Positions 9,313 to 64,000 of a stretch of 64,000 bases of DNA are shown one piece after another. Numbering within the stretch: position 1 is the first letter of the stretch; each line of letters starts with the position of its first letter. The position numbers were made by a program, and so were the translations under genes. The DNA lies in NCBI RefSeq assembly GCF_003018115.1, contig NZ_CP027457.1, one strand, 5' to 3'. This DNA comes from Escherichia coli. Lineage in GTDB: Bacteria > Pseudomonadota > Gammaproteobacteria > Enterobacterales > Enterobacteriaceae. The notes below the pieces were generated by a model. The model was given only the letters and a program-made list of their open reading frames with translations. It searched no databases and was not told where the DNA came from.

Positions 9313-9368
9313 TTATTGTCAGGCTCTGATCACAGAGCCTGACATCTCCGTAATATCTTCCTGAAGTC

Positions 9369-12515
<3,147 letters not shown>

Positions 12516-12561
12516 TTAAGAGTGTAATAGTTTCCTCCAGCTAACGCACTGGAGGAAAAAT

Positions 12562-12879
12562 TCAGGCATGGAGTTCTTTTCTTAATGAAATAATTTCCCT
12601 GGCTAAATCCTGGCATAACATCGCATTCATCAAATGATCCTGTGCATGTACCAGAATTAAATTAACTTTTATTTTGCCACAGCCTTCATCCTGACTAATT
12701 AACGCGGTCTGAATCTTATGTGCCTGAAGACAGGCAGATTCAGAACTGGCCATTAGCTGAGTTGCGCCCTGCCAGTCTTTTTTCCCGGCACAACGTATGG
12801 CTTCCATCGCATCAGAACGAGCCTGTCCCGCGTTGACCAGTAACTCCATAACAAGTTCTTCATCTGCAAACATCAACAT
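12562..12879 (-). CDS. PTS EIIA component, lactose/cellobiose family
   Basis: 105-aa ORF with conserved His context (LILVHAQDHLM) typical of ChbA-like EIIA. Confidence 0.85.
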   Translation of the reverse strand: MLMFADEELVMELLVNAGQARSDAMEAIRCAGKKDWQGATQLMASSESACLQAHKIQTALISQDEGCGKIKVNLILVHAQDHLMNAMLCQDLAREIISLRKELHA

Positions 12880-12900
12880 CTCCTTTCTGTGTGAATGGGA

Positions 12901-14223
12901 TTATCCGTTAGTTGTTAAGTTATTGACCTTGTTGGCGGCAATAACAAAAGGTAAATAGATCATTGTCGCCACACCTAAACATAAAAAACCAACCAGTAAC
13001 GCCAGCCAGTTTCCCCCGGTTCCGAGGAAAGCAATTAAAGGTCCGGGCGTAGTCCAGGGCACGGCATAAGCAACCGGTGGAATAATTTCCATCGAAACAA
13101 AGAAGTAACCAATGGCACAGTTAACAATGGGAACCAGAATAAACGGCACCATCATAATGGGGTTAAGTACAATAGGAAGGCCGAACATTATCGGTTCATT
13201 GATATTGAAAATACCGGGGATAAATGACATTTTTGCCAGATCACGGTATTCCGCACGCTTAGATGCGATAAAAATAGCCAACAATAACCCCAACGTCATA
13301 CCTGAACCGCCGCAGTTGGCGAATGCATCATTAATAGAAGTCCAGGTAATCGGATATGGCGCGCCCCAGGTAGTGCCGTGTTGAGCGGCCCAGGAGAGAT
13401 TCTCCAGATTAGCCTCAGAAAAAACGGTTTCTCGAATTGCCGACGTGGTATTAGGTCCGTGGATCCCCAGCACCCAGAGGAAATTACCCACAGCCCCCAG
13501 GATAATTACCGCAAAGATATTCGTTCCCATATGTTTGAGCGGCGTCTGGATTAATGTGTAAATGAGATCGTTTAATCCTGCCGGGGATATCAGTGTCAGG
13601 CAATAATTAAGTGTGGAAAAGAACACCATAACAAAAAATATTGGCAATAAAACTTTAAATGAACGCGCTACCGCAGGAGGTACAGCTGCCGGCATCGTTA
13701 TGGTGATTTTTGGGTTTCGAGCTAAGCGACAAAATATTTCACTGGTGATCAATGCAACGATAACAGCAACAAACAACCCCTGCGCGCCGAGATATTTGGT
13801 CGTCAGGAATGCTTGTCCTTCTATCATCTGATATGGTGTATAAACAATAAAAAATGCTCCTATTGCCGTTAATCCGCATAAAAGATCATCTTGCTCATAG
13901 CTAATCGCCATATTTCTGGCGACCAGGAAAGCAATCATAATTGACATGATATTTACAGAACCATTCATTACCGGAGTAAAAATAGCTTGTGCTTTTTCAA
14001 GGTTGGGGAAAATGCTGTTCAGATGCAGTAATCCGGCAATAAAACCGTCTGGCGATAATATGGCAAAGTTAATTAATATAATTAATGAACTTGCCATGAT
14101 AATTGGAAACGTAAAAACGAATCCATCTCTCACCGCTGCAACATGTTTTTGTGAGTTTAACTTGATAGCAACTGGAACAAGAAAACGTTCCATTCCACGT
14201 TCGAATGAGGCCATTAATCCCAT
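12901..14223 (-). CDS. PTS EIIC permease, lactose/cellobiose family
   Basis: 440-aa polytopic membrane protein at the ChbC-like position between EIIB and EIIA. Confidence 0.85.
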   Translation of the reverse strand: MGLMASFERGMERFLVPVAIKLNSQKHVAAVRDGFVFTFPIIMASSLIILINFAILSPDGFIAGLLHLNSIFPNLEKAQAIFTPVMNGSVNIMSIMIAFLVARNMAISYEQDDLLCGLTAIGAFFIVYTPYQMIEGQAFLTTKYLGAQGLFVAVIVALITSEIFCRLARNPKITITMPAAVPPAVARSFKVLLPIFFVMVFFSTLNYCLTLISPAGLNDLIYTLIQTPLKHMGTNIFAVIILGAVGNFLWVLGIHGPNTTSAIRETVFSEANLENLSWAAQHGTTWGAPYPITWTSINDAFANCGGSGMTLGLLLAIFIASKRAEYRDLAKMSFIPGIFNINEPIMFGLPIVLNPIMMVPFILVPIVNCAIGYFFVSMEIIPPVAYAVPWTTPGPLIAFLGTGGNWLALLVGFLCLGVATMIYLPFVIAANKVNNLTTNG

Positions 14224-14336
14224 TTTTTATACCTGCTGTTCTGGATATTTATACATCCCAATAAAGCATGTATGCCATATCCATTTTATGATGTGTGAAA
14301 AGTTAGTTCAGGTAATAGTTTAATAATATTAGATTC

Positions 14337-14648
14337 TTACTCTTGCAGTAGTTTCATCGCAAATTCAAGAACTGCCTGTCCGTTCATGGTGCCATAGTCT
14401 TTCATCTCGATAACGGATACAGGCATTTTCCCCTGTGCAACGGCTTCAATCTCCGGTTTCTGAAAGCGAACTTGCGGGCCAAGTAAAACAACGTCAACTT
14501 CGTTATTTTTAATTTTCCCTTTAGCCTCTGCAATCGCCAATGCGGAAATATTAACTTCAAGTGAAATAGCGTTAGCATGATCAATCATACGTTTAACCAG
14601 CATACTGGTTGACATGCCCGCAGCGCAAACTAACAATATCTTTTTCAT
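14337..14648 (-). CDS. PTS EIIB component, lactose/cellobiose family
   Basis: 103-aa ORF with active-site Cys context (LLVCAAGMSTSMLV). Confidence 0.85.
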   Translation of the reverse strand: MKKILLVCAAGMSTSMLVKRMIDHANAISLEVNISALAIAEAKGKIKNNEVDVVLLGPQVRFQKPEIEAVAQGKMPVSVIEMKDYGTMNGQAVLEFAMKLLQE

Positions 14649-14846
14649 ATTTTCCCTTACTGGTATATAACAGACTACATTGTGTAAATATCATATCCCG
14701 CAGTAGCTATACATCCTGGTACATTGATCACAGTAATACAGTAATAAAGTTGTTCAACATCAGGGTGTTAATTAAACGACTCGGCCATACGATAAACCAA
14801 TCAGGACTCAACCCCTTGTTTTCAATGGCTCTTAAAAGGTGCAAAA

Positions 14847-15545
14847 GTGATTTTTCAAAAGATTGCCCGCTTACTTAAATCCGAGATCAATGGCTATTCA
14901 TGGCATGTTGGTGATTTGTTGCCATCAGAAGCTGAACTCGCAGTTCGTTATAATGTTTCGCGTAATACCCTGCGTAAGGCATTATCCTTGCTGGAAGGCG
15001 AAGGAATTATTCACAGAAAGCATGGTTCAGGAACATACATTCAAAAAAAGAATTTTGTTGCACACATTGATCACATGAACAGTTTCAGTGAAATTGCGCA
15101 TAAAAGCGGCAAAGAGGCAGGGAGTCAGATTATGAAATTTGAAGTGCAGGATGCTTCACCTACTATTGCGACTGAGCTGAATTTAGTAACTGGTGAGCAG
15201 GTTTATTACATAAAGAGACTGCGATTCATTGAGGATAATGCAGCACAATTAGAAGAAACGTGGATGTCAGTGGCACGTTTTCCTGATTTAACCGTAGCAC
15301 ATATGCAAAAATCCAAATTTTCGTATATTGAGAACGAATGCGGGATCAAAATCATTGGCACCTTTGAAACTTTCTCCCCTACTTTTCCTACCCCAGAAAT
15401 CGCCAGTATTTTACGGATCAGCCCACGGGATCCCATACTTAAAATTCAGACCCAGGCTGTGGACAGTAACTCTGTTCCGCTGGATTATTCGTTACTTTAC
15501 AGCAATATTTTCGAGTTCCAGGTAAAGTACTTTTTCCCGCGATAA
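14847..15545 (+). CDS. GntR/HutC-family transcriptional regulator, divergent from the PTS operon (GTG start in track)
   Basis: N-terminal GntR winged HTH (SEAELAVRYNVSRNTLRKALSLLEGEGII) plus UTRA-like C-terminal domain. Confidence 0.8.
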   Translation: MIFQKIARLLKSEINGYSWHVGDLLPSEAELAVRYNVSRNTLRKALSLLEGEGIIHRKHGSGTYIQKKNFVAHIDHMNSFSEIAHKSGKEAGSQIMKFEVQDASPTIATELNLVTGEQVYYIKRLRFIEDNAAQLEETWMSVARFPDLTVAHMQKSKFSYIENECGIKIIGTFETFSPTFPTPEIASILRISPRDPILKIQTQAVDSNSVPLDYSLLYSNIFEFQVKYFFPR

Positions 15546-15588
15546 AGCAGACGCACAGAGTGCTGACATCACATTCTGTGCGTATGGT

Positions 15589-16488
15589 TTAGCCTCTAAC
15601 CTTTACCGCTTTACGCCACCGCAAGCCAAATACATTGATATACAGCCCGGTCATAATGAGCACCGCACCGAAAAATTGCAGACCCGTTAAGCGTTCATCC
15701 AACAATAGTGCCGCACTTGCCAGTCCGACTACAGGCACCAGTAACGATAACGGTGCAACCCGCCAGGTTTCATAGCGTCCAAGTAGTGTTCCCCAGATCC
15801 CATAACCAACAATTGTCGCCACAAAAGCCAGATACATCAGAGACAAGATAGTGGTCATATCGATAGTGACCAGACTGTGAATCATGGTTGCGGAACCATC
15901 GAGAATCAGCGAGGCAACAAAGAAGGGAATGATTGGGATTAATGCGCTCCAGATTACCAGCGACATCACCGCCGGACGCGTTGCGTGCGACATGATCTTT
16001 TTATTGAAGATGTTGCCACACGCCCAACTAAATGCTGCCGCCAGGGTCAACATAAAGCCGAGCATCGCCACATGCTGACCGTTCAGACTATCTTCGATTA
16101 ACACCAGTACGCCAAAAATCGCTAAGGCGATCCCCGCCAATTGTTTGCCATGCAGTCGCTCCCCGAAAGTAAACGCGCCAAGCACGATAGTAAAAAACGC
16201 CTGTGCCTGTAACACCAGCGAAGCCAGTCCAGCAGGCATACCAAAATTAATGGCGCAGAACAGAAAGGCAAACTGCGCAAAACTGATGGTTAATCCATAC
16301 CCCAGCAGCAAATTCAGTGGTACTTTCGGTCGTGCGACAAAAAAGATGGCCGGAAAAGCGACCAGCATAAAGCGCAAACCGGCCAGCATCAGCGGTGGCA
16401 TGTTATGAAGCCCCACTTTGATGACCACAAAATTTAGCCCCCATACGACCACTACCAGTATCGCCAACACCCCATCTTTTCGCGACAT
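15589..16488 (-). CDS. eamA: Cysteine/O-acetylserine exporter (DMT family)
   Basis: MSRKDGVLAILVVVVWGLNFVVIKVGL... 299 aa from internal ATG of the 306-aa ORF; two EamA repeats. Confidence 0.9.
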   Translation of the reverse strand: MSRKDGVLAILVVVVWGLNFVVIKVGLHNMPPLMLAGLRFMLVAFPAIFFVARPKVPLNLLLGYGLTISFAQFAFLFCAINFGMPAGLASLVLQAQAFFTIVLGAFTFGERLHGKQLAGIALAIFGVLVLIEDSLNGQHVAMLGFMLTLAAAFSWACGNIFNKKIMSHATRPAVMSLVIWSALIPIIPFFVASLILDGSATMIHSLVTIDMTTILSLMYLAFVATIVGYGIWGTLLGRYETWRVAPLSLLVPVVGLASAALLLDERLTGLQFFGAVLIMTGLYINVFGLRWRKAVKVRG

Positions 16489-16682: not shown

Positions 16683-17870
16683 ATGAACTTATCCCTACGA
16701 CGCTCTACCAGCGCCCTTCTTGCCTCGTCGTTGTTATTAACCATCGGACGCGGCGCTACGCTGCCATTTATGACCATTTACTTGAGTCGCCAGTACAGCC
16801 TGAGTGTCGATCTAATCGGTTATGCGATGACAATTGCGCTCACTATTGGCGTCGTTTTTAGCCTCGGTTTTGGTATCCTGGCGGATAAGTTCGACAAGAA
16901 ACGCTATATGTTACTGGCAATTACCGCCTTCGCCAGCGGTTTTATTGCCATTCCTTTAGTGAATAACGTGACGCTGGTGGTGCTCTTTTTTGCCCTCATT
17001 AACTGCGCCTATTCCGTTTTTGCTACCGTGTTGAAAGCCTGGTTTGCCGACAATCTTTCGTCCACCAGCAAAACGAAAATCTTCTCAATCAACTACACCA
17101 TGCTCAACATTGGCTGGACCATCGGTCCGCCGCTCGGCACGCTGTTGGTGATGCAGAGCATCAATCTGCCCTTTTGGCTGGCAGCTATCTGTTCCGCGTT
17201 TCCCATGCTTTTCATTCAAATTTGGGTAAAGCGCAGCGAGAAAATCATCGCCACGGAAACAGGCAGTGTCTGGTCGCCGAAAGTTTTATTACAAGATAAA
17301 GCACTGTTGTGGTTTACCTGCTCTGGCTTTCTGGCTTCTTTTGTTAGTGGCGCATTTGCTTCATGCATCTCACAATATGTGATGGTGATTGCTGATGGGG
17401 ATTTTGCCGAAAAGGTGGTCGCGGTTGTTCTTCCGGTGAATGCTGCCATGGTGGTTACGTTGCAATATTCCGTGGGCCGCCGACTTAACCCGGCTAACAT
17501 CCGCGCGCTGATGACAGCAGGCACCCTCTGTTTCGTCATCGGTCTGGTCGGTTTTATTTTTTCCGGCAACAGCCTGCTATTGTGGGGTATGTCAGCTGCG
17601 GTATTTACTGTCGGTGAAATCATTTATGCGCCGGGCGAGTATATGTTGATTGACCATATTGCGCCGCCAGGAATGAAAGCCAGCTATTTTTCCGCCCAGT
17701 CATTAGGCTGGTTGGGCGCAGCGGTAAATCCATTAGTGAGTGGTGTTGTACTTACCACTCTCCCGTCGTCTTCGCTGTTTATCATTCTGGCGTTAGTCAT
17801 CATTGCCGCGTGGGCGCTGATGTTAAAAGGTATTAACGCCAGACCCCAGAGGCAACCAGCACTCTGTTGA
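16683..17870 (+). CDS. ydeE: MFS transporter YdeE
   Basis: 395-aa 12-TM MFS protein at the expected position after eamA. Confidence 0.9.
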   Translation: MNLSLRRSTSALLASSLLLTIGRGATLPFMTIYLSRQYSLSVDLIGYAMTIALTIGVVFSLGFGILADKFDKKRYMLLAITAFASGFIAIPLVNNVTLVVLFFALINCAYSVFATVLKAWFADNLSSTSKTKIFSINYTMLNIGWTIGPPLGTLLVMQSINLPFWLAAICSAFPMLFIQIWVKRSEKIIATETGSVWSPKVLLQDKALLWFTCSGFLASFVSGAFASCISQYVMVIADGDFAEKVVAVVLPVNAAMVVTLQYSVGRRLNPANIRALMTAGTLCFVIGLVGFIFSGNSLLLWGMSAAVFTVGEIIYAPGEYMLIDHIAPPGMKASYFSAQSLGWLGAAVNPLVSGVVLTTLPSSSLFIILALVIIAAWALMLKGINARPQRQPALC

Positions 17871-17910
17871 CGTTCGTGCCGTTCCACTACTGGCACGGCT
17901 TCGCTAATCA

Positions 17911-18306
17911 TTATTCTGAGGCAAAGGCATAGCCTTCATCTTCCCAGCCGGTTATCCCGCCGAGCATGATTTTAACCGGCTTTCCGAGTCGAGCCAGTTT
18001 GAGTGCCGCACGGTCTGCACCGTTACAATGTGGCCCCGCGCAATACACCACAAATAGCGTATCGTCGGGCCATTCGGCCATTCTTTCTGCGGTCATTTGC
18101 TTATGGGGTAAATGGAGAGCGCCTGGGATATGCCGACGCGCGAAGTCCTCTTCACGTCCAACCACATGAAGTAAAACGAAATCATCGCCAATATAAGCCA
18201 GAGAGTCATGAACATCGGCGCAATCTGTTTCGACACTCAAGCGCGCGAGAAAATGCGCCTCAGCAACTTCTGGCTTCGCTGTGGTAAATTCAGTGACATA
18301 ACGCAT
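17911..18306 (-). CDS. Single-domain rhodanese-like sulfurtransferase
   Basis: 131-aa ORF with rhodanese active-site loop context (VVYCAGPHCNGADRAA). Confidence 0.75.
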   Translation of the reverse strand: MRYVTEFTTAKPEVAEAHFLARLSVETDCADVHDSLAYIGDDFVLLHVVGREEDFARRHIPGALHLPHKQMTAERMAEWPDDTLFVVYCAGPHCNGADRAALKLARLGKPVKIMLGGITGWEDEGYAFASE

Positions 18307-18379
18307 ATTGCTTTGTCCTTTTGGTTTGTTGTGTTAACAATAATGTAACTAATCTACCTTTCACTGACCGCCTCTCGAT

Positions 18380-19372
18380 ATGCCAGAAATGAGCAAAATG
18401 ATGACAACGTTACAACGTCCGCTGGTCATTGCACTGGCATATGACGGGCTATGTACTTTTGAATTTGGCGTTGCCGTTGAAATATTCGGCCTGCCACGAC
18501 CGGAACTGGGCGATAACTGGTATCGTTTTGCTGTTGCTGCGGTAGAACCTGGTGCGCTACAAGCCACCGGGGGGATCCACGTGGTTGCAGATGGTGGACT
18601 GGAGTTATTGCCCAACGCCGATATGATTATTATTCCTGGCTGGCGCGGAATAGATGCCAAAGTGCCGGAGATGCTATGCCAGTCATTGCGCGAGGCACAC
18701 CAGCGCGGTACTCGCCTGGTATCAATATGCTCTGGCGTGTTTGTCCTTGCTGCTGCGGGCCTTCTTCATCAGCGAAAAGCAACCACCCACTGGCGCTACA
18801 CTGAACAACTCCAGCACCGTTACCCTTCAATCAGCGTAAGTGATAATGTGTTATATCAGGATGAAGGACAAGTGATGACCTCCGCCGGAAGCGCCGCGGG
18901 GATCGATCTGTGTTTACATATCGTGCGCAAAGATTTTGGTCATGAGATTGCTAATAATGTCGCCCGGCGACTGGTCATTCAGCCACATCGCCAGGGGGAT
19001 CAACCACAAAATCTGACGCGCCCAATGGCCTCACCGCGTGAAAGCCAGACGTTAGGTGCCTTATTCGACTTTTTGCAGCAGAATCTGGCACAAACACATA
19101 CTGTGTCTTCCCTCGCCGAACGGGTAAATATGAGTCCGCGCACTTTTTTAAGACGTTTTGAGGCGTTAACTGGCATGACGCCCGCCCGCTGGCTGCTCAA
19201 TGAGCGCTTAATACGAGTACAGGATTATCTGCAAAATTCGGTTTTTAACATCGAGAAAATTGCCGAGCTGACGGGTTTTGGCAATTCAGCGTTATTGCGT
19301 CATCACTTTCACCAACGTTTTTTATTATCTCCTTCGCAATATCGCAAAAACAGCCGTTCCCCATCACAATAA
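18380..19372 (+). CDS. AraC-family regulator with N-terminal DJ-1/PfpI (class I glutamine amidotransferase-like) domain
   Basis: N-terminal DJ-1/PfpI fold with nucleophile-elbow Cys (RLVSICSGVFVLAAAGLL); C-terminal AraC HTH (SLAERVNMSPRTFLRRFEALTGMTPARWL...). Exact start among several N-terminal Met uncertain. Confidence 0.75.
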   Translation: MPEMSKMMTTLQRPLVIALAYDGLCTFEFGVAVEIFGLPRPELGDNWYRFAVAAVEPGALQATGGIHVVADGGLELLPNADMIIIPGWRGIDAKVPEMLCQSLREAHQRGTRLVSICSGVFVLAAAGLLHQRKATTHWRYTEQLQHRYPSISVSDNVLYQDEGQVMTSAGSAAGIDLCLHIVRKDFGHEIANNVARRLVIQPHRQGDQPQNLTRPMASPRESQTLGALFDFLQQNLAQTHTVSSLAERVNMSPRTFLRRFEALTGMTPARWLLNERLIRVQDYLQNSVFNIEKIAELTGFGNSALLRHHFHQRFLLSPSQYRKNSRSPSQ

Positions 19373-19479
19373 TCGCCTGATTCAGCCTTTGTTTAGATAA
19401 CCTCTGCTAATATCTTTCTCATTGAGATAAAAATTAAGGTAAGCGAGGAAACACACCACACCATAAACGGAGGCAAATA

Positions 19480-19575
19480 ATGCTGGGTAATATGAATGTT
19501 TTTATGGCCATACTGGGAATAATTTTATTTTCTGGTTTTCTGGCCGCGTATTTCAGCCACAAATGGGATGACTAA
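19480..19575 (+). CDS. mgtS: Small membrane protein MgtS (YneM), 31 aa
   Basis: Translation MLGNMNVFMAILGIILFSGFLAAYFSHKWDD; below the ORF-track size cutoff; GGAGG RBS upstream. Confidence 0.85.
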   Translation: MLGNMNVFMAILGIILFSGFLAAYFSHKWDD

Positions 19576-19602
19576 TGAACGGAGATAATCCCTCACCTAA
19601 CC

Positions 19603-19642
19603 GGCCCCTTGTTACAGTTGTGTACAAGGGGCCTGATTTTTA
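19603..19642 (+). terminator. Rho-independent terminator downstream of mgtS
   Basis: GC-rich hairpin GGCCCCTTGT...ACAAGGGGCC followed by TGATTTTTA. Confidence 0.6.
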
Positions 19643-19650
19643 TGACGGCG

Positions 19651-19755
19651 AAAAAAAACCGCCAGTAAACCGGCGGTGAATGCTTGCATGGATAGATTTG
19701 TGTTTTGCTTTTACGCTAACAGGCATTTTCCTGCACTGATAACGGATCGTTGACA
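19651..19755 (-). ncRNA. mgrR: Candidate PhoP-dependent sRNA MgrR; boundaries approximate
   Basis: Minus-strand PhoP-box-like direct repeat aGTTTAagctccGTTTAa at plus 19781-19800, then about 100 nt to a minus-strand terminator (CCGCC...GGCGG plus T8, plus 19651-19676). Sequence identity not verified from memory. Confidence 0.45.
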
Positions 19756-19793
19756 CAGTAGCATCAGTTTTCTCAATGAATGTTAAACGGAGC

Positions 19794-29726: not shown

Positions 29727-29840
29727 ATGAACAGCATACTGATAATCACATCTCTCCTTATCATATTCAGCATTTTTAGTCATGCCCTAATAAAATTAGG
29801 GATTGGCATATCCAATAACCCAGACAAAACCGATGTATAA
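29727..29840 (+). CDS. Candidate 37-aa small hydrophobic protein upstream of ydfK
   Basis: ATG with GAGG RBS; translation [37 protein letters not shown] has one predicted TM helix. No homology evidence. Confidence 0.3.
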
Positions 29841-55929: not shown

Positions 55930-56160
55930 TCAACTCAAGAGCCTTATTGCTGCTTCCAGAATTTCTTCTGAAGTAACATGTCGATCCGCGGCTACATAAA
56001 TGACTTTATGATCTCCGGTCAGAGATGGAAACCCTGCGGCCATTACAGTAAGGTGTGTTTTTTCGCCATTTGGATATTCACGCATGATGGTGTTAACTCC
56101 AGTCATCGCTGGCACTACCACTGCTGGTTCAGAGTTAAAAAAAACTATGATTTTTTTCAT
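55930..56160 (-). CDS. Small prophage protein (possibly ynfN-like); start uncertain
   Basis: ORF MKKIIVFFNSEPAVVVPAMTGVNTIMREYPNGEKTHLTVMAAGFPSLTGDHKVIYVAADRHVTSEEILEAAIRLLS; a 51-aa version would start at MREYP (56085). Confidence 0.45.
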   Translation of the reverse strand: MKKIIVFFNSEPAVVVPAMTGVNTIMREYPNGEKTHLTVMAAGFPSLTGDHKVIYVAADRHVTSEEILEAAIRLLS

Positions 56161-56431
56161 GATGTTACCGTAGTATGTGAGTATCCATCGAATAGACACC
56201 AAGCAAAAAAGCTCCCGAAGGAGCCTTCATTTTCACTTTTTTAAATCCAACGACAGACGGCTGGCATTTAAGTATTGTGAAATATTATCAAATGTAATCA
56301 TCATTGATTTACAAAAGATACATTTTGCCCCGAAAGGATTCATGTCAGAAACATCAAAAGATGATGTTCTATACTGGGAACCATGACAACACGGGCATCT
56401 AAAGTGAATATGGTTTGTAATATTGTCTACC

Positions 56432-56644
56432 TCAAAGCGCCACTACATGAACAGCGGCAGGACCTTTAGGTCCGTTCTCAATACCAAATTCAACTTCCTG
56501 ATTCTCAGTTAATGTTTTGAAATCGTTGCTCTGAATTGCTGAGAAATGGACAAACACATCTTTGCTGCCATCTTTCGGCGTGATGAAACCAAAACCTTTT
56601 TCAGGGTTAAACCATTTCACTAAACCAGTCATTTTGTTAGACAT
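56432..56644 (-). CDS. cspI: Cold-shock protein (CspA family)
   Basis: 70-aa [41 protein letters not shown]... with RNP1/RNP2 motifs. Confidence 0.85.
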
Positions 56645-57006
56645 AATTATTACCTTTTGAAGAAATTAGCCCTTGGGCAGAATGGTCCGAAAAAAAATAT
56701 CAGAGAGAAAAACCAACAAGGAAATCTCAAGAGGTACAAATAATAAAATTATAACAATGACTGCTTCAGATAAATTTGTAACAAACCAGAACACCATTAA
56801 CGCATGATTAACCACCCATAGCAAGGATTACTTTTGTAAAGAAAAACACAGCAATGAAAGAATAGCTTTATTTATTAATAAAACGTGTCATTCTGATTAA
56901 GACCTTTTATCTTACCCTTAAGATTTCAGGAATTTTGGCTCATGGAAGAGTCCTTTTTATTTAAATTTTACATTCCGCGATGTAAATGTTCCGATTTAAT
57001 ATTACC

Positions 57007-58030
<1,024 letters not shown>

Positions 58031-58034
<4 letters not shown>

Positions 58035-58342
58035 AGATATTTATGATGAGGACGCTCGTGCTTATTGGCAGGATTTTCAATCTTAAAGGAGTACTGATGC
58101 TGCAGATAAGACTCAACTTTTTCTGACAATTTTTCTGCTACTTCCAGGAAGACTTGCCGGACGCTCCTTCTGGCTGCTGCCTCATAAAACTCCAGCGCAG
58201 CTCCTTCAACACGGTCCATGGCGACATCCAGGTCAAAAATTTCACCGTCAAAGCGTTCTTTGTCCTGTAAGGCTACAGTTACCGTAACTTTATTCTCAAA
58301 ATTACGGACTCCTTTCACAACCAGTTCATAGTCTTGAGTCAT
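58031..58342 (-). CDS. ydfR: DUF1327 protein YdfR, between holin and endolysin
   Basis: 103-aa ORF MTQDYELVVKGVRNFENKVTVTVALQDKERFDGEIFDLDV... Confidence 0.8.
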
Positions 58343-58346
58343 TGGA

Positions 58347-58562
58347 TTACTCTCCTCTCGCAGCCTTACGCCTGTCTTCTTTAATCTTGAAATAAAGATT
58401 TGTCAGATACGTCAGCAGGCCAAAAACCAGGCTACCCAGCACACCGATTGCAGCCCACTGTGACGGAGTTACTTTATCGAGTAACTGCAATGCCCAGAAA
58501 CCAGCATTACCCGCCGATGTGCCATAGGCAACACCTGTTGTTAACTTATCCATTGATTTCAT
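58347..58562 (-). CDS. essQ: Class II holin (phage 21 S-like pinholin) with dual-start motif
   Basis: [26 protein letters not shown]... 71 aa; two TM domains; Met-Lys-Ser-Met dual start. Confidence 0.85.
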
Positions 58563-58781
58563 ATCCTCACCCCGATGTACACGGATGGTGCAATATGTTT
58601 GAAAAGATCGGAGTCTACGGGGTAGTTTTGACAGCACACGTTGTTCTCAACGGCGCTAAAAAAACATACACATTAAAAATGTGGGTAATTATTTTGAAAG
58701 AAAGTCATATATAAAATAATAATACGAGAAATGTTTTCATATTTAGTGTACTGTATACGGCCATTTATACAGGAAAAGCCT

Positions 58782-58952
58782 ATGTCAGAACGTAAAAACT
58801 CAAAATCACGCCGTAATTATCTCGTTAAATGTTCCTGCCCAAACTGCACCCAAGAGTCAGAACACAGTTTTTCAAGAGTACAAAAAGGTGCCCTTTTGAT
58901 CTGCCCTCATTGCAACAAAGTATTCCAGACAAATCTTAAAGCTGTAGCCTGA
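58782..58952 (+). CDS. ynfU: 56-aa zinc-ribbon small protein (YnfU-like)
   Basis: MSERKNSKSRRNYLVKCSCPNCTQESEHSFSRVQKGALLICPHCNKVFQTNLKAVA; CxCPxC...CPxC four-Cys motif. Confidence 0.6.
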   Translation: MSERKNSKSRRNYLVKCSCPNCTQESEHSFSRVQKGALLICPHCNKVFQTNLKAVA

Positions 58953-59315
58953 TTGATTTTATTAGTAACAAGTATTTTTTATATTTTAATAATATATTTA
59001 AAGCAGATAATAAAAAACCCGCCTGAGCGGGTTTGAGATTGTGGTGCTTTTTGTGGGAGTCATCCACTTACGCACTTTGTTTTGCCATGCCAGCAGTTAG
59101 CTTCTGCTGTAAAACTATTCATGCAGCAAACCTGCACTTCACCACAATGGTTAGCATACTTTTCCTGATTAAGATTTTGCCAAATATGCTAGCCATTGTT
59201 TCATGTATTGGACCTCCTTACTTTTTATTAAAGAGATCCAATATTCACTACTCTGTCCGTATCTCTACTCAGGCATCAGCCTTCTTCGTTATCGTATACA
59301 GACGAGCGATGAATT

Positions 59316-59531
59316 TTAATCAGTAATGATGACATTTGCTGCTGCAGGACCTTTAGCACCACTCTCTATAGAGAAGGTAACCTTTTGACCTTCAAATAAG
59401 GTTCGATAATTATCATTCTGAATCGCAGAAAAATGCACAAACACATCTTTACTACCATCAACAGGAGAAATAAAGCCGAAACCTTTATCAGCGTTAAACC
59501 ATTTTACTAAACCAGTCATTTTATTTGACAT
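59316..59531 (-). CDS. cspB: Cold-shock protein (CspA family)
   Basis: 71-aa [41 protein letters not shown]... Confidence 0.85.
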
Positions 59532-59831
59532 TCTACATTCCTTAACTTGAGCCTTTCGGCATAAATGGTTTGCATAACAGAAACGACTTCGTACTTAATT
59601 GGAGAGACTCAAAGAAGGAATAAGTGAATAACACCTGAAATGAGAACTGCTTTAGTAAACTACTTCGTATATCGTCTGTTCTTCAAACCGACGCAATCAT
59701 TAACGCATAGTTGAACATATGAAGCAATGTTTATTTTAGACATCCAGCCATCTTCAACCCCATCAAAAAACTATAGCTTTCTTCAGGAACGTGTGTATAG
59801 TGCGCCAAGTTATCAGTATTAAGGAATTTTT

Positions 59832-60044
59832 TTGTCCCGTAAAATGACAGGAATTGTCAAAACCTTTGACGGCAAAAGCGGCAAGGGTCTTATCACCCCA
59901 TCCGATGGTCGTATCGATGTCCAGCTTCATGTTTCAGCGCTCAATCTCCGCGATGCAGAAGAAATTACCACCGGATTACGCGTGGAATTTTGCCGGATAA
60001 ATGGTCTGCGTGGCCCTTCAGCTGCCAATGTTTACCTTTCATGA
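59832..60044 (+). CDS. cspF: Cold-shock-like protein (CspA family, divergent)
   Basis: 70-aa [40 protein letters not shown]...[19 protein letters not shown]. Confidence 0.85.
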
Positions 60045-60098
60045 GCTATATTAAAGCTTTAATTTCAGGCCCCATCGGATCACACATGGAGAGTTTTT

Positions 60099-60188
60099 AT
60101 GAATAACCCCGTCTGTCTTGATGACTGGTTGATTGGCTTTAAAAGCTTATGCTGTACTTTGGCCGTAATAGCTCTGCTAATAATATAA
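60099..60188 (+). CDS. Candidate 29-aa small membrane protein downstream of cspF
   Basis: ATG with GGAGAG RBS 5 nt upstream; [29 protein letters not shown] has a hydrophobic C-terminal helix. No homology evidence. Confidence 0.35.
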
Positions 60189-60465
60189 TAAGCAGACTCA
60201 TTGTGTTTAGGGACATTGTACTGGAAGAAAACATTTTAAACATCAGGCAAATAACCAAGTCACCAGCTAAATAATAAGTTAACAGACATGAGTCCCGGGA
60301 TGAGATTCAACATTACCATTGCCCCATTTAAAGCACAAAACCCGCTCATCAGCGGGTTTTCTACTTTTTCTTAACGTCGGGTATACAAAGCCCATCGTTG
60401 AAAAAATTTTATCCATATTTTTTGAAAAATGCAAACATCATGTCGCCATCTTCAGCAAAAATCAT

Positions 60466-61218
60466 TTATCTCGTCACCTTCCTCAATTGCGCTTCCGCGT
60501 ATGCTTCTTCCTGCCAGCACTTTGTTACCAGTTTACCAATGACGTCCGCATACCCCTTATACCACTGATAATCGGTCAGGTCTGGTACCAGCTTCTGGAC
60601 ATGACGTCGTGCCAGCGTGGTCGGTAAACGACTAAACCGGTTTCCATTACAACGCCCACAAATCTTATATACCGGTACGCCATGAAACCGGGTTCTTTTT
60701 TCATCCAGAACAATCCCTTTACCCTTACACCCTCTGCACGCTGTGCTGGCTTCGCCCTTACCATGGCAATGCTGACATAGTTCCTTCACCCATTCTTCCT
60801 TGATTACAGATTCCCCGCGTCTGTAGTGTTTCACCACTTCGCGCAATACATTATAAAATCCCGTACCTGAACAATGCTCACAGCGAGCCTTACTTGCCGC
60901 AGACCTGGAGTAATCAGCAAAGGCAAAACTCACGAGGTAAGGAATAATCTGTAACCGGATTTCTTCACTCAATTTGTTCAATGTCGGGTTATCCAGTGCC
61001 ATCGCGTAATTTAGCAGGCCTTCAATCGCAAACTGAGGGTCCTGAACACCAACTTTTGCCAGAAATAAGGCCAACCCAAGTGGTGCTTTCGACTGCACCA
61101 TCCCCTGCGCTGCCATTACATCCGTAATTGTTAAACAACCGGTGCCTGTCGCTGGAGCGTCATCGCTCAATTTTGGAGATTTTGGGGAGTAATATTTTGG
61201 TAAGGCTTCAAGGTTCAT
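60466..61218 (-). CDS. quuQ: Late-gene antiterminator Q-like protein
   Basis: MNLEALPKYYSPKSPKLSDD... 250 aa from internal ATG; Cys-rich zinc-binding motifs (CEHCSGTG, CQHCHGKG, CRGCKGKG, CGRCNGN). Confidence 0.85.
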   Translation of the reverse strand: MNLEALPKYYSPKSPKLSDDAPATGTGCLTITDVMAAQGMVQSKAPLGLALFLAKVGVQDPQFAIEGLLNYAMALDNPTLNKLSEEIRLQIIPYLVSFAFADYSRSAASKARCEHCSGTGFYNVLREVVKHYRRGESVIKEEWVKELCQHCHGKGEASTACRGCKGKGIVLDEKRTRFHGVPVYKICGRCNGNRFSRLPTTLARRHVQKLVPDLTDYQWYKGYADVIGKLVTKCWQEEAYAEAQLRKVTR

Positions 61219-61231
61219 GCTCGTTCTCCAC

Positions 61232-62320
61232 TTACGCCAGTACGCCAATTGTCAGCGCGCGATCGATAAAACGAAATATCAGCTCCAGTTGGGAGCCATA
61301 CTTATCTTCAAATGCCACTGTATCCGTATGCAGCTCGTTGTGATGCTTTCTGCACAAAGGCAACACAAAGAGATCATGTGCTTTTGTTCCCATTCCGCCC
61401 TGCCCGTGACCAATCAGATGATGCGGATCGTCGGCTGGCATACCGCAGCAAGCACACGGCTGTGTCTTAACCCAACGTGTGTATTTCTCCTTAACCCAGC
61501 GGCGACGTTTAGGCAGCTTCATGAAAGATTCCGGAGACTCTGGATCAACGGTGATGCTTACCACCGTCTTTTCCTGTGGTGATTTTTGTTGCTGGTGGGC
61601 GTAAGGCAACGGTGCAAGATTTTTTGTGCGTTGTTTCAATATGCTGGTGGCGGTCTGCTCTCCCGGTACGATGTCGCTTTCGCGGTACACCGAGCAGATT
61701 TTTTCCGCTGGTAATCCCAGCGAACGACGCGATACAGCCTCAGGTAGTGCATCCACCACCTGATTGCAGACCGCCCACCAGGATAATTCAGCCAAAGATA
61801 ATTCCCGCTCCTGCGTACCGCTTATTGCGTGACGGATGACGTCAATCACCCATGCTGTCAGATTTTGTTGAGCAAGCAGCTCCAGTGATTCCGATGTCTG
61901 GTCACGCAGTTGGTTGTCGCAGTGCCAGCACAACACCATTGCGCCGGTACCATAACGGTGAATGACTGTTTCAGTGTGATGGTAATCGCCATTAGGCCAC
62001 TGGCAGGATGTAACATGACGTAATAGCCAGTCGGACAATGCGCCAACGCCGCCAGCAGCACGAATCACCCGTTCGTTACTAAAAAACGGCAGCAATGTTT
62101 TGTCTTCCGCCAGCGGCTGGCGAACGGCAGGAACGACTCCGGATGGCAGATTACGCATGCTTTTTGGTTCCGGTTCCACCAGCACTCGAGGATTATGAAA
62201 TATCTGTATGGATTCACGGCCCGGCTTAAGGACCACCAGCCCAAGCTCAGGCACCAGAACAGGTCTAAGTAATACCCGCACGTTACCTCCAGATCCGTTG
62301 CTGGAAAGTGCGGGACGCAC
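61232..62320 (-). CDS. ydfU: DUF968-family prophage protein YdfU; start uncertain (track start may be extended)
   Basis: 362-aa ORF with C-terminal Cys/His cluster (CACCGMPADDPHHLIGHGQGG...CRKHHNELH). Confidence 0.8.
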   Translation of the reverse strand: MRPALSSNGSGGNVRVLLRPVLVPELGLVVLKPGRESIQIFHNPRVLVEPEPKSMRNLPSGVVPAVRQPLAEDKTLLPFFSNERVIRAAGGVGALSDWLLRHVTSCQWPNGDYHHTETVIHRYGTGAMVLCWHCDNQLRDQTSESLELLAQQNLTAWVIDVIRHAISGTQERELSLAELSWWAVCNQVVDALPEAVSRRSLGLPAEKICSVYRESDIVPGEQTATSILKQRTKNLAPLPYAHQQQKSPQEKTVVSITVDPESPESFMKLPKRRRWVKEKYTRWVKTQPCACCGMPADDPHHLIGHGQGGMGTKAHDLFVLPLCRKHHNELHTDTVAFEDKYGSQLELIFRFIDRALTIGVLA

Positions 62321-62561
62321 GTGGTGGGCGTTCGGAATAAGGCAGCCTGACAGAGATTATCCAGTGCCGATAGTCGAGACTGAGAGCTTTCTTAACCTCG
62401 AACCCGCGCCTGCGGTAAGAATGAATCAGCCATTCGGCCTGTTCTGCAGTGCATGGAGGGTGCTGGAACCATTCAGACTTGAATGCGTGAGAATACCGCC
62501 CGTGCGTGCAGGCAAGAACGGGCGAATTATCAGAATTGTAATATTTTGCGTTGCGTGCCAT
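62283..62561 (-). CDS. Hypothetical 92-aa protein immediately upstream of ydfU
   Basis: ORF MARNAKYYNSDNSPVLACTHGRYSHAFKSEWFQHPPCTAEQAEWLIHSYRRRGFEVKK...; non-random composition; ends where the shorter ydfU start would lie. Confidence 0.4.
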   Translation of the reverse strand: MARNAKYYNSDNSPVLACTHGRYSHAFKSEWFQHPPCTAEQAEWLIHSYRRRGFEVKKALSLDYRHWIISVRLPYSERPPRASRTFQQRIWR

Positions 62562-62627
62562 CGGTTTTCTCCGGTGGCACGGTGTTACTCAGCGGGAGTT
62601 CAGCCCCGCGCAAGATTGTAGATGAGT

Positions 62628-62879
62628 TTATTCTCCTGAAAAAGCAGAAAAGCCAGCTTTTATTCCGATCTCTTTCAATGCCTGTAATGAAGTGACAAAC
62701 TCACCTTCGCGCAAGATAAATCCGTCCGTGACCCGAGCATCCACAAAATTAATTAACGCAGCCCCATTCTTTCGCAAACACATAATGCGGTAATGACTAA
62801 CAAGATTTCCATTTTCAACGCACACAGCATAGAGGCCATCTTCACAAAAAATTTTACGCAGTTCTTCGATGTTCATCAT
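62628..62879 (-). CDS. rem: Qin prophage protein Rem
   Basis: 83-aa ORF MMNIEELRKIFCEDGLYAVCVENGNLVSHYRIMCLRKNG... Confidence 0.8.
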   Translation of the reverse strand: MMNIEELRKIFCEDGLYAVCVENGNLVSHYRIMCLRKNGAALINFVDARVTDGFILREGEFVTSLQALKEIGIKAGFSAFSGE

Positions 62880-62997
62880 CAGAATCCTTCCGGATAATTA
62901 GCTCTCCCCTTTAAGGGACCATCCCTCTTATCCCTGCGCGCTACTTAAGTATTTTTGATTCTATTCCGGCACCGTCCAGAACTTCAAACGCGTTGAA

Positions 62998-63027
62998 AAT
63001 AAAAACAAAAACCCGCCGAAGCGGGTT
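62998..63027 (-). terminator. Rho-independent terminator downstream of hokD (end of relB-relE-hokD operon)
   Basis: Hairpin AACCCGC-TTCG-GCGGGTT followed by T-run on the minus strand. Confidence 0.55.
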
Positions 63028-63095
63028 AAGTGCGGGTGCGTTGAGGATGCCTGCCACATCAGAGGTGGCGAGGGATTTCTCCCCCGCCGGGTCTC

Positions 63096-63251
63096 TTACT
63101 CCTCAGGTTCGTAAGCTGTGAAGACAGCGACCTCCGTCTGGCCGGTTCGGATTCGTACCTCGCAGAGGTCTTTCCTCGTTACCAGTGCCGTCACTATGAC
63201 GGTTAAACAGATGACGATCAGGGCGATTAACATCGCCTTTTGCTGCTTCAT
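63096..63251 (-). CDS. hokD: Hok-family membrane toxin HokD (RelF), 51 aa
   Basis: Minus-strand translation MKQQKAMLIALIVICLTVIVTALVTRKDLCEVRIRTGQTEVAVFTAYEPEE; below ORF-track cutoff. Confidence 0.85.
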   Translation of the reverse strand: MKQQKAMLIALIVICLTVIVTALVTRKDLCEVRIRTGQTEVAVFTAYEPEE

Positions 63252-63322
63252 AGCCTGCTTCTCCTGTCAACGCAAAGCAGAAGTGTCACCTTCGGTGCGA
63301 AACAGAGATGTCATGCTTTGGT

Positions 63323-63610
63323 TCAGAGAATGCGTTTGACCGCCTCGCTATATACTTCCGAGCGTTCTCTTTTCCCAACAGAAATCACGAAAACGACAAC
63401 TTTCTCGTCTATAACCTGGTATACAAGGCGATAGCCTGAAGACCGGAGCTTAATCTTGTAACAATCAGGCATACCACGGAGCTTGTTTGCTTCAATCCGG
63501 GGTGACTCAAGTACTTCAACCAGCTTCTTTTTCAACTGTTCACGTACCGTCGAGCCCAGCTTTCGCCATTCCTTTAGTGCCCGCTCGTCAAAATCCAGAA
63601 AATACGCCAT
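63323..63610 (-). CDS. relE: RelE mRNA interferase toxin
   Basis: 95-aa ORF MAYFLDFDERALKEWRKLGSTVREQLKKKL... Confidence 0.95.
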   Translation of the reverse strand: MAYFLDFDERALKEWRKLGSTVREQLKKKLVEVLESPRIEANKLRGMPDCYKIKLRSSGYRLVYQVIDEKVVVFVISVGKRERSEVYSEAVKRIL

Positions 63611-63849
63611 CAGAGTTCATCCAGCGTCACACGTACTGGCTTAGGATTACGAAGCCGTTCTTTCACTATCTCCACAAGTTCAGCATCTTCATCACTCAGG
63701 AGTGTCTGTTTGAACGGCAAGCGTTCATTGTCAGCGATATACTCGAGCATGAGACGAAGCGCTTCAGAAGGAGTTACACCCATTTTTTCAAGCGCGGCGT
63801 AAGAACGCGCTTTAAGTTCATCGTCAATACGCAGGTTAATGCTACCCAT
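63610..63849 (-). CDS. relB: RelB antitoxin (RHH DNA-binding)
   Basis: 79-aa ORF MGSINLRIDDELKARSYAALEKMGVTPSEALRLMLEYIADNERLPF...; 1-nt overlap with relE. Confidence 0.95.
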   Translation of the reverse strand: MGSINLRIDDELKARSYAALEKMGVTPSEALRLMLEYIADNERLPFKQTLLSDEDAELVEIVKERLRNPKPVRVTLDEL

Positions 63850-63860
63850 GTCTTACACCT

Positions 63861-63887
63861 CTTGTAATTACAAATGTCATTACAAGT
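63861..63887 (-). promoter_or_regulatory. relO: relBE operator: palindromic repeats overlapping the relB promoter
   Basis: CTTGTAATTACAAATGTCATTACAAG directly upstream of relB start; 12-bp palindrome TTGTAATTACAA plus repeated ATTACAA. Confidence 0.7.
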
Positions 63888-64000
63888 ATCGCACTACAAC
63901 ATGCTTAGGGCAAGTCACGAAGGAAGTCAGAAAGTAGTCGTAAGAACGGTGATCACTGTCCGCTTTGTGCCAGGAGCAGCCATTGCTAAGTCCATCCTGT

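Follow-up and report, generated by a model that had tools for sequence, protein, structure and literature searches.

The DNA analysed in this study is a stretch of 64,000 nucleotides from Escherichia coli, hereafter called the window, whose positions are used throughout. The window differs from MG1655: identity to NC_000913.3 is 97-99% in the core regions, it reaches 99.96% with K-12 over 55976-63977, and about 21 kb of DNA lying between stfQ and nohA (32677-53815) are absent from K-12 Qin. Therefore, the Qin-like prophage of the window is much more complete than the cryptic Qin of K-12. Further blocks absent from NC_000913.3 map to positions 500-999, 9314-15599 and 17834-19380. The local gene order reads essQ and the lysis genes (- strand), ynfU (+), cspB (-), cspF (+), ynfS (+), ydfT/quuQ (-) and ydfU (-), and the cspF/ynfS/Q arrangement recurs in phages HannyBb and 2H10 as well as in other E. 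coli strains.

The subject of this analysis is the frame at 60099-60188 on the + strand, which, according to the open reading frame list of the window and its translation, is opened by an ATG, runs for 29 codons and is closed by a TAA stop at 60186-60188. A second TAA follows directly, giving a tandem TAA TAA at 60186-60191. Upstream of the start codon, a GGAGAG Shine–Dalgarno sequence can be read at 60088-60093, 5 nt from the ATG, its GGAG core being 7 nt away; this element is unpaired in the centroid fold. An earlier note on this DNA had described precisely such a frame and ribosome binding site, and both were confirmed in the sequence at their exact positions; its wording of a near-ideal site is, in our judgement, generous for what is a good Shine–Dalgarno sequence. 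The GGAGAG motif was invariant among the copies of the locus that we examined, a result to be read with the caveat that the motif belonged to the search anchor used to collect those copies; it was also seen in copies found with patterns internal to the open reading frame.

Both the 29-aa sequence and the 90-nt DNA are identical to ynfS of K-12 (b4750, YP_009518791.1; UniProt entry YNFS_ECOLI). The NC_000913.3 record carries these 90 nt as ynfS at 1642122..1642211, with cspF and ydfT on either side, within the 'cryptic prophage Qin'. In addition, the protein matches the Pfam family PF23697 'YnfS', of 29 positions, with a score of 80.9 bits, the cutoff being 27, and the alignment pairs residues 1-29 with model positions 1-29. 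In other genomes PGAP labels the same open reading frame 'hypothetical protein' WP_120795389.1, and a 701-nt query around ynfS finds 100% identity in hundreds of E. coli chromosomes. Profile searches of NCBIfam and PADLOC with YnfS returned no match, and two marginal matches, to phrog_31207 in PHROG (E = 0.12) and to a Pectobacterium phage by tblastn (E = 8), were dismissed as noise. The earlier note had left two possibilities, a catalogued 'ynf-series' small protein of Qin or an unannotated one. Comparison with the K-12 small-protein catalogue decides for the former, with an identical sequence and the same flanking genes, and against the latter, the frame being already named in both the reference annotation and Pfam.

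Translation of ynfS is likewise on record. VanOrsdel et al. 2018 (PMC6001520) list ynfS with this exact sequence, coordinates and flanking genes (Table 1), place it among 36 sORFs for which a chromosomal SPA fusion gave a product visible by immunoblot in LB cultures, and mention it as an unidentified positive of a tetracycline ribosome-profiling screen. Weaver et al. (bioRxiv 10.1101/511675) report strong start-codon peaks on ynfS in ribosome profiling with retapamulin and with Onc112, and YnfS was found in stationary phase at a level comparable to that of most new small proteins. These data bear out the claim of a translated micro-protein; the SPA immunoblot answers in print the chromosomal tagging that had been proposed as a check, and the strong initiation peaks are the opposite of the silent Ribo-seq profile that had been named as grounds for rejection. 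A 2024 y-ome survey still places ynfS among the uncharacterised Qin genes, and our literature search turned up no work on the function, localisation or toxicity of YnfS.

In conclusion, we hold with high confidence that the frame at 60099-60188 is ynfS, an already known gene of Qin-type lambdoid phages and prophages that is genuinely translated. It is not a new finding, since both its translation and the tagging of its product have been published, and its name, reference annotation and Pfam family were also known beforehand. What is new here is solely the population-genetic and distributional picture of ynfS.

Architecture of the cspF–ynfS region

The gene preceding ynfS is cspF (59832..60044, + strand), which by open reading frame and annotation encodes a cold-shock-domain protein of 70 aa. 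The two genes are separated by a spacer of 54 nt (60045..60098), in which a scan of the + strand detected neither a terminator-like nor a promoter-like site; by eye, TTTACC and TATATT can be recognised in the spacer, only 9 nt apart, and an internal promoter was accordingly discarded as a candidate. Because the 54-nt spacer carries no terminator- or promoter-like site, we infer that cspF and ynfS are co-transcribed. Downstream of ynfS, the putative cspF–ynfS transcript would continue into an AT-rich and variable 3' untranslated region (60189..60336, GC 0.378), up to a hairpin at 60337-60360.

This hairpin has a 10-bp stem; it is terminator-like on the + strand in the terminator scan and folds strongly on the - strand (z = -4.98), and we read it as a bidirectional intrinsic terminator. 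The segment in which it lies, 60337-60470, is 80-85% conserved beside Q in SfV, mEp460, Ayreon and Stx2c phages, and the SfV annotation places a rho-independent terminator directly downstream of Q, at the homologous hairpin. In the window, Q corresponds to ydfT/quuQ, the late antiterminator gene (60466..61218, - strand; annotated 753-nt CDS mapped to the window), which is convergent with ynfS. Just downstream of Q, a consensus match, TTTGCA-18-TAAAAT, marks a candidate pR' late promoter at 60406..60435 (- strand). Altogether, the segment 60337-60470 looks like a pR' promoter, a short leader of about 65 nt and a tR' terminator arranged as a unit downstream of Q, and the hairpin would thus be common to both strands, closing the cspF–ynfS transcript on the + strand and acting as tR' of the short pR' transcript on the - strand.

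From this arrangement a tentative picture of the expression of ynfS can be drawn. Specifically, ynfS would be the distal cistron of a cspF–ynfS accessory unit (a 'moron') placed between Q and the lysis genes; the unit would be transcribed in the lysogen from the divergent region between cspB and cspF, against the direction of the Q-dependent late operon, and its transcript would end at the hairpin that may serve as tR' on the - strand. If the hairpin does act as tR' for late transcription, antitermination there would carry the late transcript across ynfS in the antisense direction.

Rfam places the cspA thermoregulator at the 5' ends of cspB (59300-59692, - strand) and cspI (56405-56790, - strand), and detects it neither upstream of cspF nor on ynfS. 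The presence of this element on cspB and cspI, with nothing comparable upstream of cspF, is consistent with a regulation of cspF–ynfS different from that of its cold-inducible neighbours.

Other elements considered in the region were set aside. The RNA structure of the + strand around ynfS is not significant (z = -1.49) and no Rfam family matches in the region, and on these grounds a structured RNA element on this strand was rejected. Two open reading frames overlap ynfS, at 60139..60258 (- strand) and 60149..60274 (+ strand); neither survives in the class of copies represented by phage 2H10, where a 7-nt indel (60250-60256) disrupts both. Further away, between ydfU and rem, PGAP calls a 92-aa hypothetical protein, WP_012304870.1, which by approximate mapping lies at about 61460-61738 (- strand); the curated NC_000913.3 record has no entry for it.

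Distribution and population variation of ynfS

The segment containing ynfS (60045-60336) is present, at a coverage of at least 80%, in 1405 of 5426 complete E. coli genomes, that is about a quarter. Most of these copies are at least 99% identical, and a minority class is about 90% identical. Among sequenced phages, ynfS is carried by PhiR42_1, HannyBb, PhiR63_1 and 2H10 and is missing from Tritos; the other phages searched contained no relative of it. The variable presence of ynfS among active lambdoid phages and E. coli genomes is the basis for regarding it as an accessory, moron-type gene.

Outside E. coli, our searches found a single diverged homologue of YnfS. Degenerate protein-level patterns applied to one genome per species, over 100,044 species, found no copy of ynfS, and the same patterns applied to IMG/VR viral contigs and to metagenomes recovered E. 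coli-type copies only. An index-free HMMER search of 1.84 billion representative proteins, for which the YnfS query was padded by one residue, gave six matches. Five of them, listed under E. coli or without an organism name, are truncated, shifted in frame or altered by indels, and the sixth is the diverged homologue, WP_435301382.1 of Citrobacter amalonaticus, which has 29 aa and shares 66% identity with YnfS. This protein keeps the N-terminal motif VCLDDWLxGFK and carries T24 and R26 in the hydrophobic half; the hydropathy of its C-terminal half, computed by hand, is about 1.2, below the usual threshold for a transmembrane segment. A pattern specific to the Citrobacter variant matched nothing in viral or metagenome contigs. 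A paralogue of ynfS downstream of cspH was also considered and rejected, the similarity between the two loci stopping at the csp stop codon.

To describe variation at the locus we compared 54 full-length segments from cspF to Q, representing 23 haplotypes. The mean pairwise diversity is 0.026 in cspF, 0.054 in the cspF–ynfS spacer, 0.026 in ynfS, 0.070, with indels, in the 3' untranslated region, 0.004 in the near-invariant terminator hairpin and 0.071 in the pR' region. With 9 of 82 sites in ynfS versus 36 of 189 in the flanks, the lower diversity of the gene does not reach significance (p = 0.11). The nature of the changes separates the two genes clearly: ynfS has one synonymous and eight non-synonymous segregating sites, one of the latter being nonsense, with a pN/pS of about 2.2 that is not different from neutral, whereas cspF has 19 synonymous and nine non-synonymous sites and a pN/pS of 0.16 (Fisher p = 0.005 for the site classes of ynfS versus cspF). 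Purifying selection on the YnfS peptide is therefore not detectable, unlike on its neighbour cspF, in a test that is of low power with nine segregating sites in ynfS. The base composition of ynfS (GC 0.378) is also that of the non-coding DNA on its two sides (0.389 and 0.378), versus 0.484 for cspF.

Several alleles in circulation abolish or shorten the product. A K15* nonsense allele is found in two viral contigs and a start-loss allele (ATG to ATA) in one. In four genomes, including NZ_CP092452.1, an IS1 element is inserted after nt 79 of ynfS (position 60177, codon 27), with a 9-bp target duplication, TAGCTCTGC; a product of 27 aa is left, and PGAP still calls this open reading frame a hypothetical protein. 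In a metagenome copy, the end of an IS1 lies at the Shine–Dalgarno sequence and the frame is shifted as well. Finally, a deletion of 257 bp (60036-60292) takes out the final codons of cspF, the entire ynfS gene and the greater part of the 3' untranslated region. It is found in phage Tritos and would account for about 216 complete genomes that match the segment only in part, the six that were sampled being all alike. In the two deletion copies followed in detail, those of Tritos and of E. coli ECCHD184, cspF is frameshifted too, which indicates that the whole cspF–ynfS unit has decayed there.

A 28-codon frame, MSPGMRFNITIAPFKAQNPLISGFSTFS, lies at 60288-60374 (+ strand) and overlaps the terminator hairpin; as judged by eye, the junction of the 257-bp deletion would join the normal frame of cspF to it. 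No fusion of the two is predicted, because cspF is frameshifted upstream in both deletion copies examined, and the alignment of the two frames is probably coincidental.

These data bear directly on the reading in which ynfS is translated but selectively neutral, a young or decaying open reading frame (a 'proto-gene') in the AT-rich region 3' of cspF that happens to be preceded by a good Shine–Dalgarno sequence. The neutral-looking pN/pS next to the constrained cspF, the circulating nonsense, start-loss, IS1, frameshift and deletion alleles, the non-coding-like base composition and the orphan status of the gene (no counterpart downstream of cspH or in the 100,044 species representatives, and six matches in 1.84 billion proteins) all favour it. 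Nevertheless, the length of 29 codons and the Shine–Dalgarno sequence are kept in almost all copies: all 14 intact members read from the 90% cluster have exactly 29 aa, and the class that is about 90% identical shows two changes in the ynfS frame versus about 10% substitutions plus indels in the 3' flank. In the same direction, the Citrobacter homologue has retained both its length and the VCLDDWLxGFK motif, and the changes that natural variants carry in residues 17-29 are for the most part conservative (A22T/G/V/S, V23L, I29M). It must also be considered that nine segregating sites give the selection test little power, and that the deletion allele, in which cspF is frameshifted as well, reflects the decay of the whole cspF–ynfS unit. 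On balance, we regard neutrality of a translated ynfS as a substantial possibility that falls somewhat short of an even chance.

The earlier note had also named a lack of conservation of the frame as an argument against the gene, and on this point conservation is only weakly borne out: the length of 29 codons is conserved in nearly all copies, but the substitutions are indistinguishable from neutral and loss-of-function alleles exist. Taken together, the data suggest that ynfS is a young, orphan prophage open reading frame under weak constraint or none, whose function is possibly marginal. Since the population data show no purifying selection, any contribution of YnfS to fitness would be small, conditional or recent.

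Predicted membrane anchor and possible activities of YnfS

The earlier note had called the product a membrane protein with a hydrophobic C-terminal helix. The hydrophobic character stands: residues 11-29 (19 aa) have a mean Kyte–Doolittle hydropathy of 2.46, and the core residues 17-29 reach 3.14, the usual threshold for a transmembrane segment being about 1.6 on this scale. The membrane location, on the other hand, is a prediction only. K15 and S16 fall within the 19-residue hydrophobic window, and the uninterrupted core is just 13 residues long.

This hydrophobicity is beyond what chance would give. The window contains 25 open reading frames of 20-50 aa with a Shine–Dalgarno sequence and an ATG, two of which reach a hydropathy of at least 2.4, versus none in 20 block-shuffled windows. 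The three most hydrophobic micro-ORFs of the window are those of the YnfT/YnaM type, of YnfS and of MgtS, all of them established small proteins. The frame of the YnfT/YnaM type starts at 29727 (+ strand, 37 aa) and mgtS at 19480 (+ strand, 31 aa), and both are hydrophobic and preceded by a Shine–Dalgarno sequence. Adjoining MgtS, a match to Rfam STnc560 at 19569-19782 (- strand) corresponds to the MgrR sRNA locus of K-12.

On the basis of hydropathy, residues 11-29 or thereabouts would probably form a single C-terminal helix that anchors the protein in the membrane, with K15 at the cytoplasmic interface, and the short acidic, cysteine-containing N-terminal segment (MNNPVCLDD) would remain in the cytoplasm. 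A lipoprotein was considered in place of such an anchor and rejected: YnfS has no lipobox of the form L-[AS]-[GA]-C, its cysteines being preceded by NPV (C6), KSL (C18) and SLC (C19), and none of them follows a positively charged n-region or an h-region.

If YnfS acts at all, it might do so by binding and modulating a larger inner-membrane protein in the lysogen, a mode of action that we put forward tentatively, by analogy with other E. coli membrane proteins of fewer than 50 aa. In its fullest form this would make YnfS a functional phage accessory peptide, in which the VCLDDWLxGFK segment, tethered by the C-terminal helix, binds a host membrane protein in the lysogen, selection on it having acted for too short a time, or in too few conditions, to be visible in a small population sample; we consider this proposal rather unlikely. 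Were it true, the VCLDDWLxGFK peptide could block the entry of DNA from superinfecting phages or adjust the envelope.

A further reading assigns importance to the act of translating ynfS and not to its product: ribosomes on ynfS would shield the region 3' of cspF from Rho, from RNases or from pairing with late antisense transcripts, and would thereby tune the stability of the cspF mRNA. A strong Shine–Dalgarno and start signal combined with neutral-looking evolution of the peptide would fit a constraint on initiation, and ynfS does sit between cspF and a long 3' untranslated region. However, the gap of 54 nt leaves no overlap or coupling with cspF, the + strand lacks significant structure in this region, natural YnfS variants retain their hydrophobic character, and the paralogous cspH locus does without any such open reading frame. 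We judge this reading, for which nothing specific speaks, highly improbable.

That YnfS is a type I toxin-like peptide, damaging the inner membrane and restrained by an antisense sRNA or by the Q-dependent late transcript, is scarcely credible, in spite of its shortness and hydrophobicity, of hokD lying 3 kb away in the same prophage, of a weak promoter-like site on the - strand (60209..60180) that overlaps the 3' end of ynfS, and of the antisense transcript that read-through from pR' would produce: Pfam at E<=10 returns YnfS only, NCBIfam and PADLOC return nothing and no toxin family is matched; the antisense site agrees with the consensus at 9 of 12 positions and has both hexamers mutated in the 2H10 class, in a region where promoter-like sites are not more numerous than expected by chance (six found versus 3.9 +/- 2.1 in shuffles); and no Rfam match points to an antisense sRNA there. 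Translation of type I toxins is normally tightly silenced. YnfS, by contrast, has an accessible, unpaired Shine–Dalgarno sequence and is readily translated from its native locus in ordinary growth (PMC6001520, 10.1101/511675), an argument to be weighed with the consideration that a C-terminal SPA tag could mask the toxicity of the peptide.

YnfS among other small proteins

What the present analysis adds for ynfS is its description as an orphan, strain-variable phage accessory gene, with no detectable purifying selection and with loss-of-function alleles in circulation. It offers a cautionary example, in that robust translation and detection of a tagged product are, on their own, no proof that a function is maintained, and ynfS may suit work on prophage genes that are young or arose de novo. 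The gene is one among many validated E. coli small proteins that are still uncharacterised, and its residual value is modest.

MgtS/YneM, AcrZ, KdpF and CydX are single-helix inner-membrane proteins of fewer than 50 aa that modulate larger membrane proteins in E. coli. YnfS resembles them in size and in having one strongly hydrophobic segment, and shares with them a stand-alone frame, a Shine–Dalgarno sequence of its own and discovery through tagging and ribosome profiling. It has no sequence relationship to any of them, its predicted helix lies at the extreme C-terminus with no residues beyond, and, unlike these proteins, it is prophage-borne and strain-variable, is no core gene and shows no detected purifying selection.

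The likeness to type I toxins such as Hok, Ldr, Ibs, ShoB and TisB, which are also short hydrophobic peptides common in prophages, goes no further than this, YnfS having no family match and no conserved antisense promoter and being freely translated in normal growth.

The small proteins YnfT/YnaM, YnfQ, YnfR and YnfU of Qin and Rac are encoded, like YnfS, by short open reading frames in or beside csp-type accessory regions of the prophages and were detected, as YnfS was, by SPA tagging or Ribo-seq; their sequences are unrelated to that of YnfS. YnfR is reportedly induced by cold shock and YnfU has a zinc-knuckle motif, whereas for YnfS we found no report of condition-specific regulation or of a motif.

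The closest comparison is with K-12 Qin itself, where YnfS is the same protein, encoded by the same DNA, with the same Shine–Dalgarno sequence and the same flanking genes, cspF upstream and ydfT/quuQ convergent downstream. The host prophage differs: in the window it still has structural genes, about 21 kb of them, that are gone from K-12.
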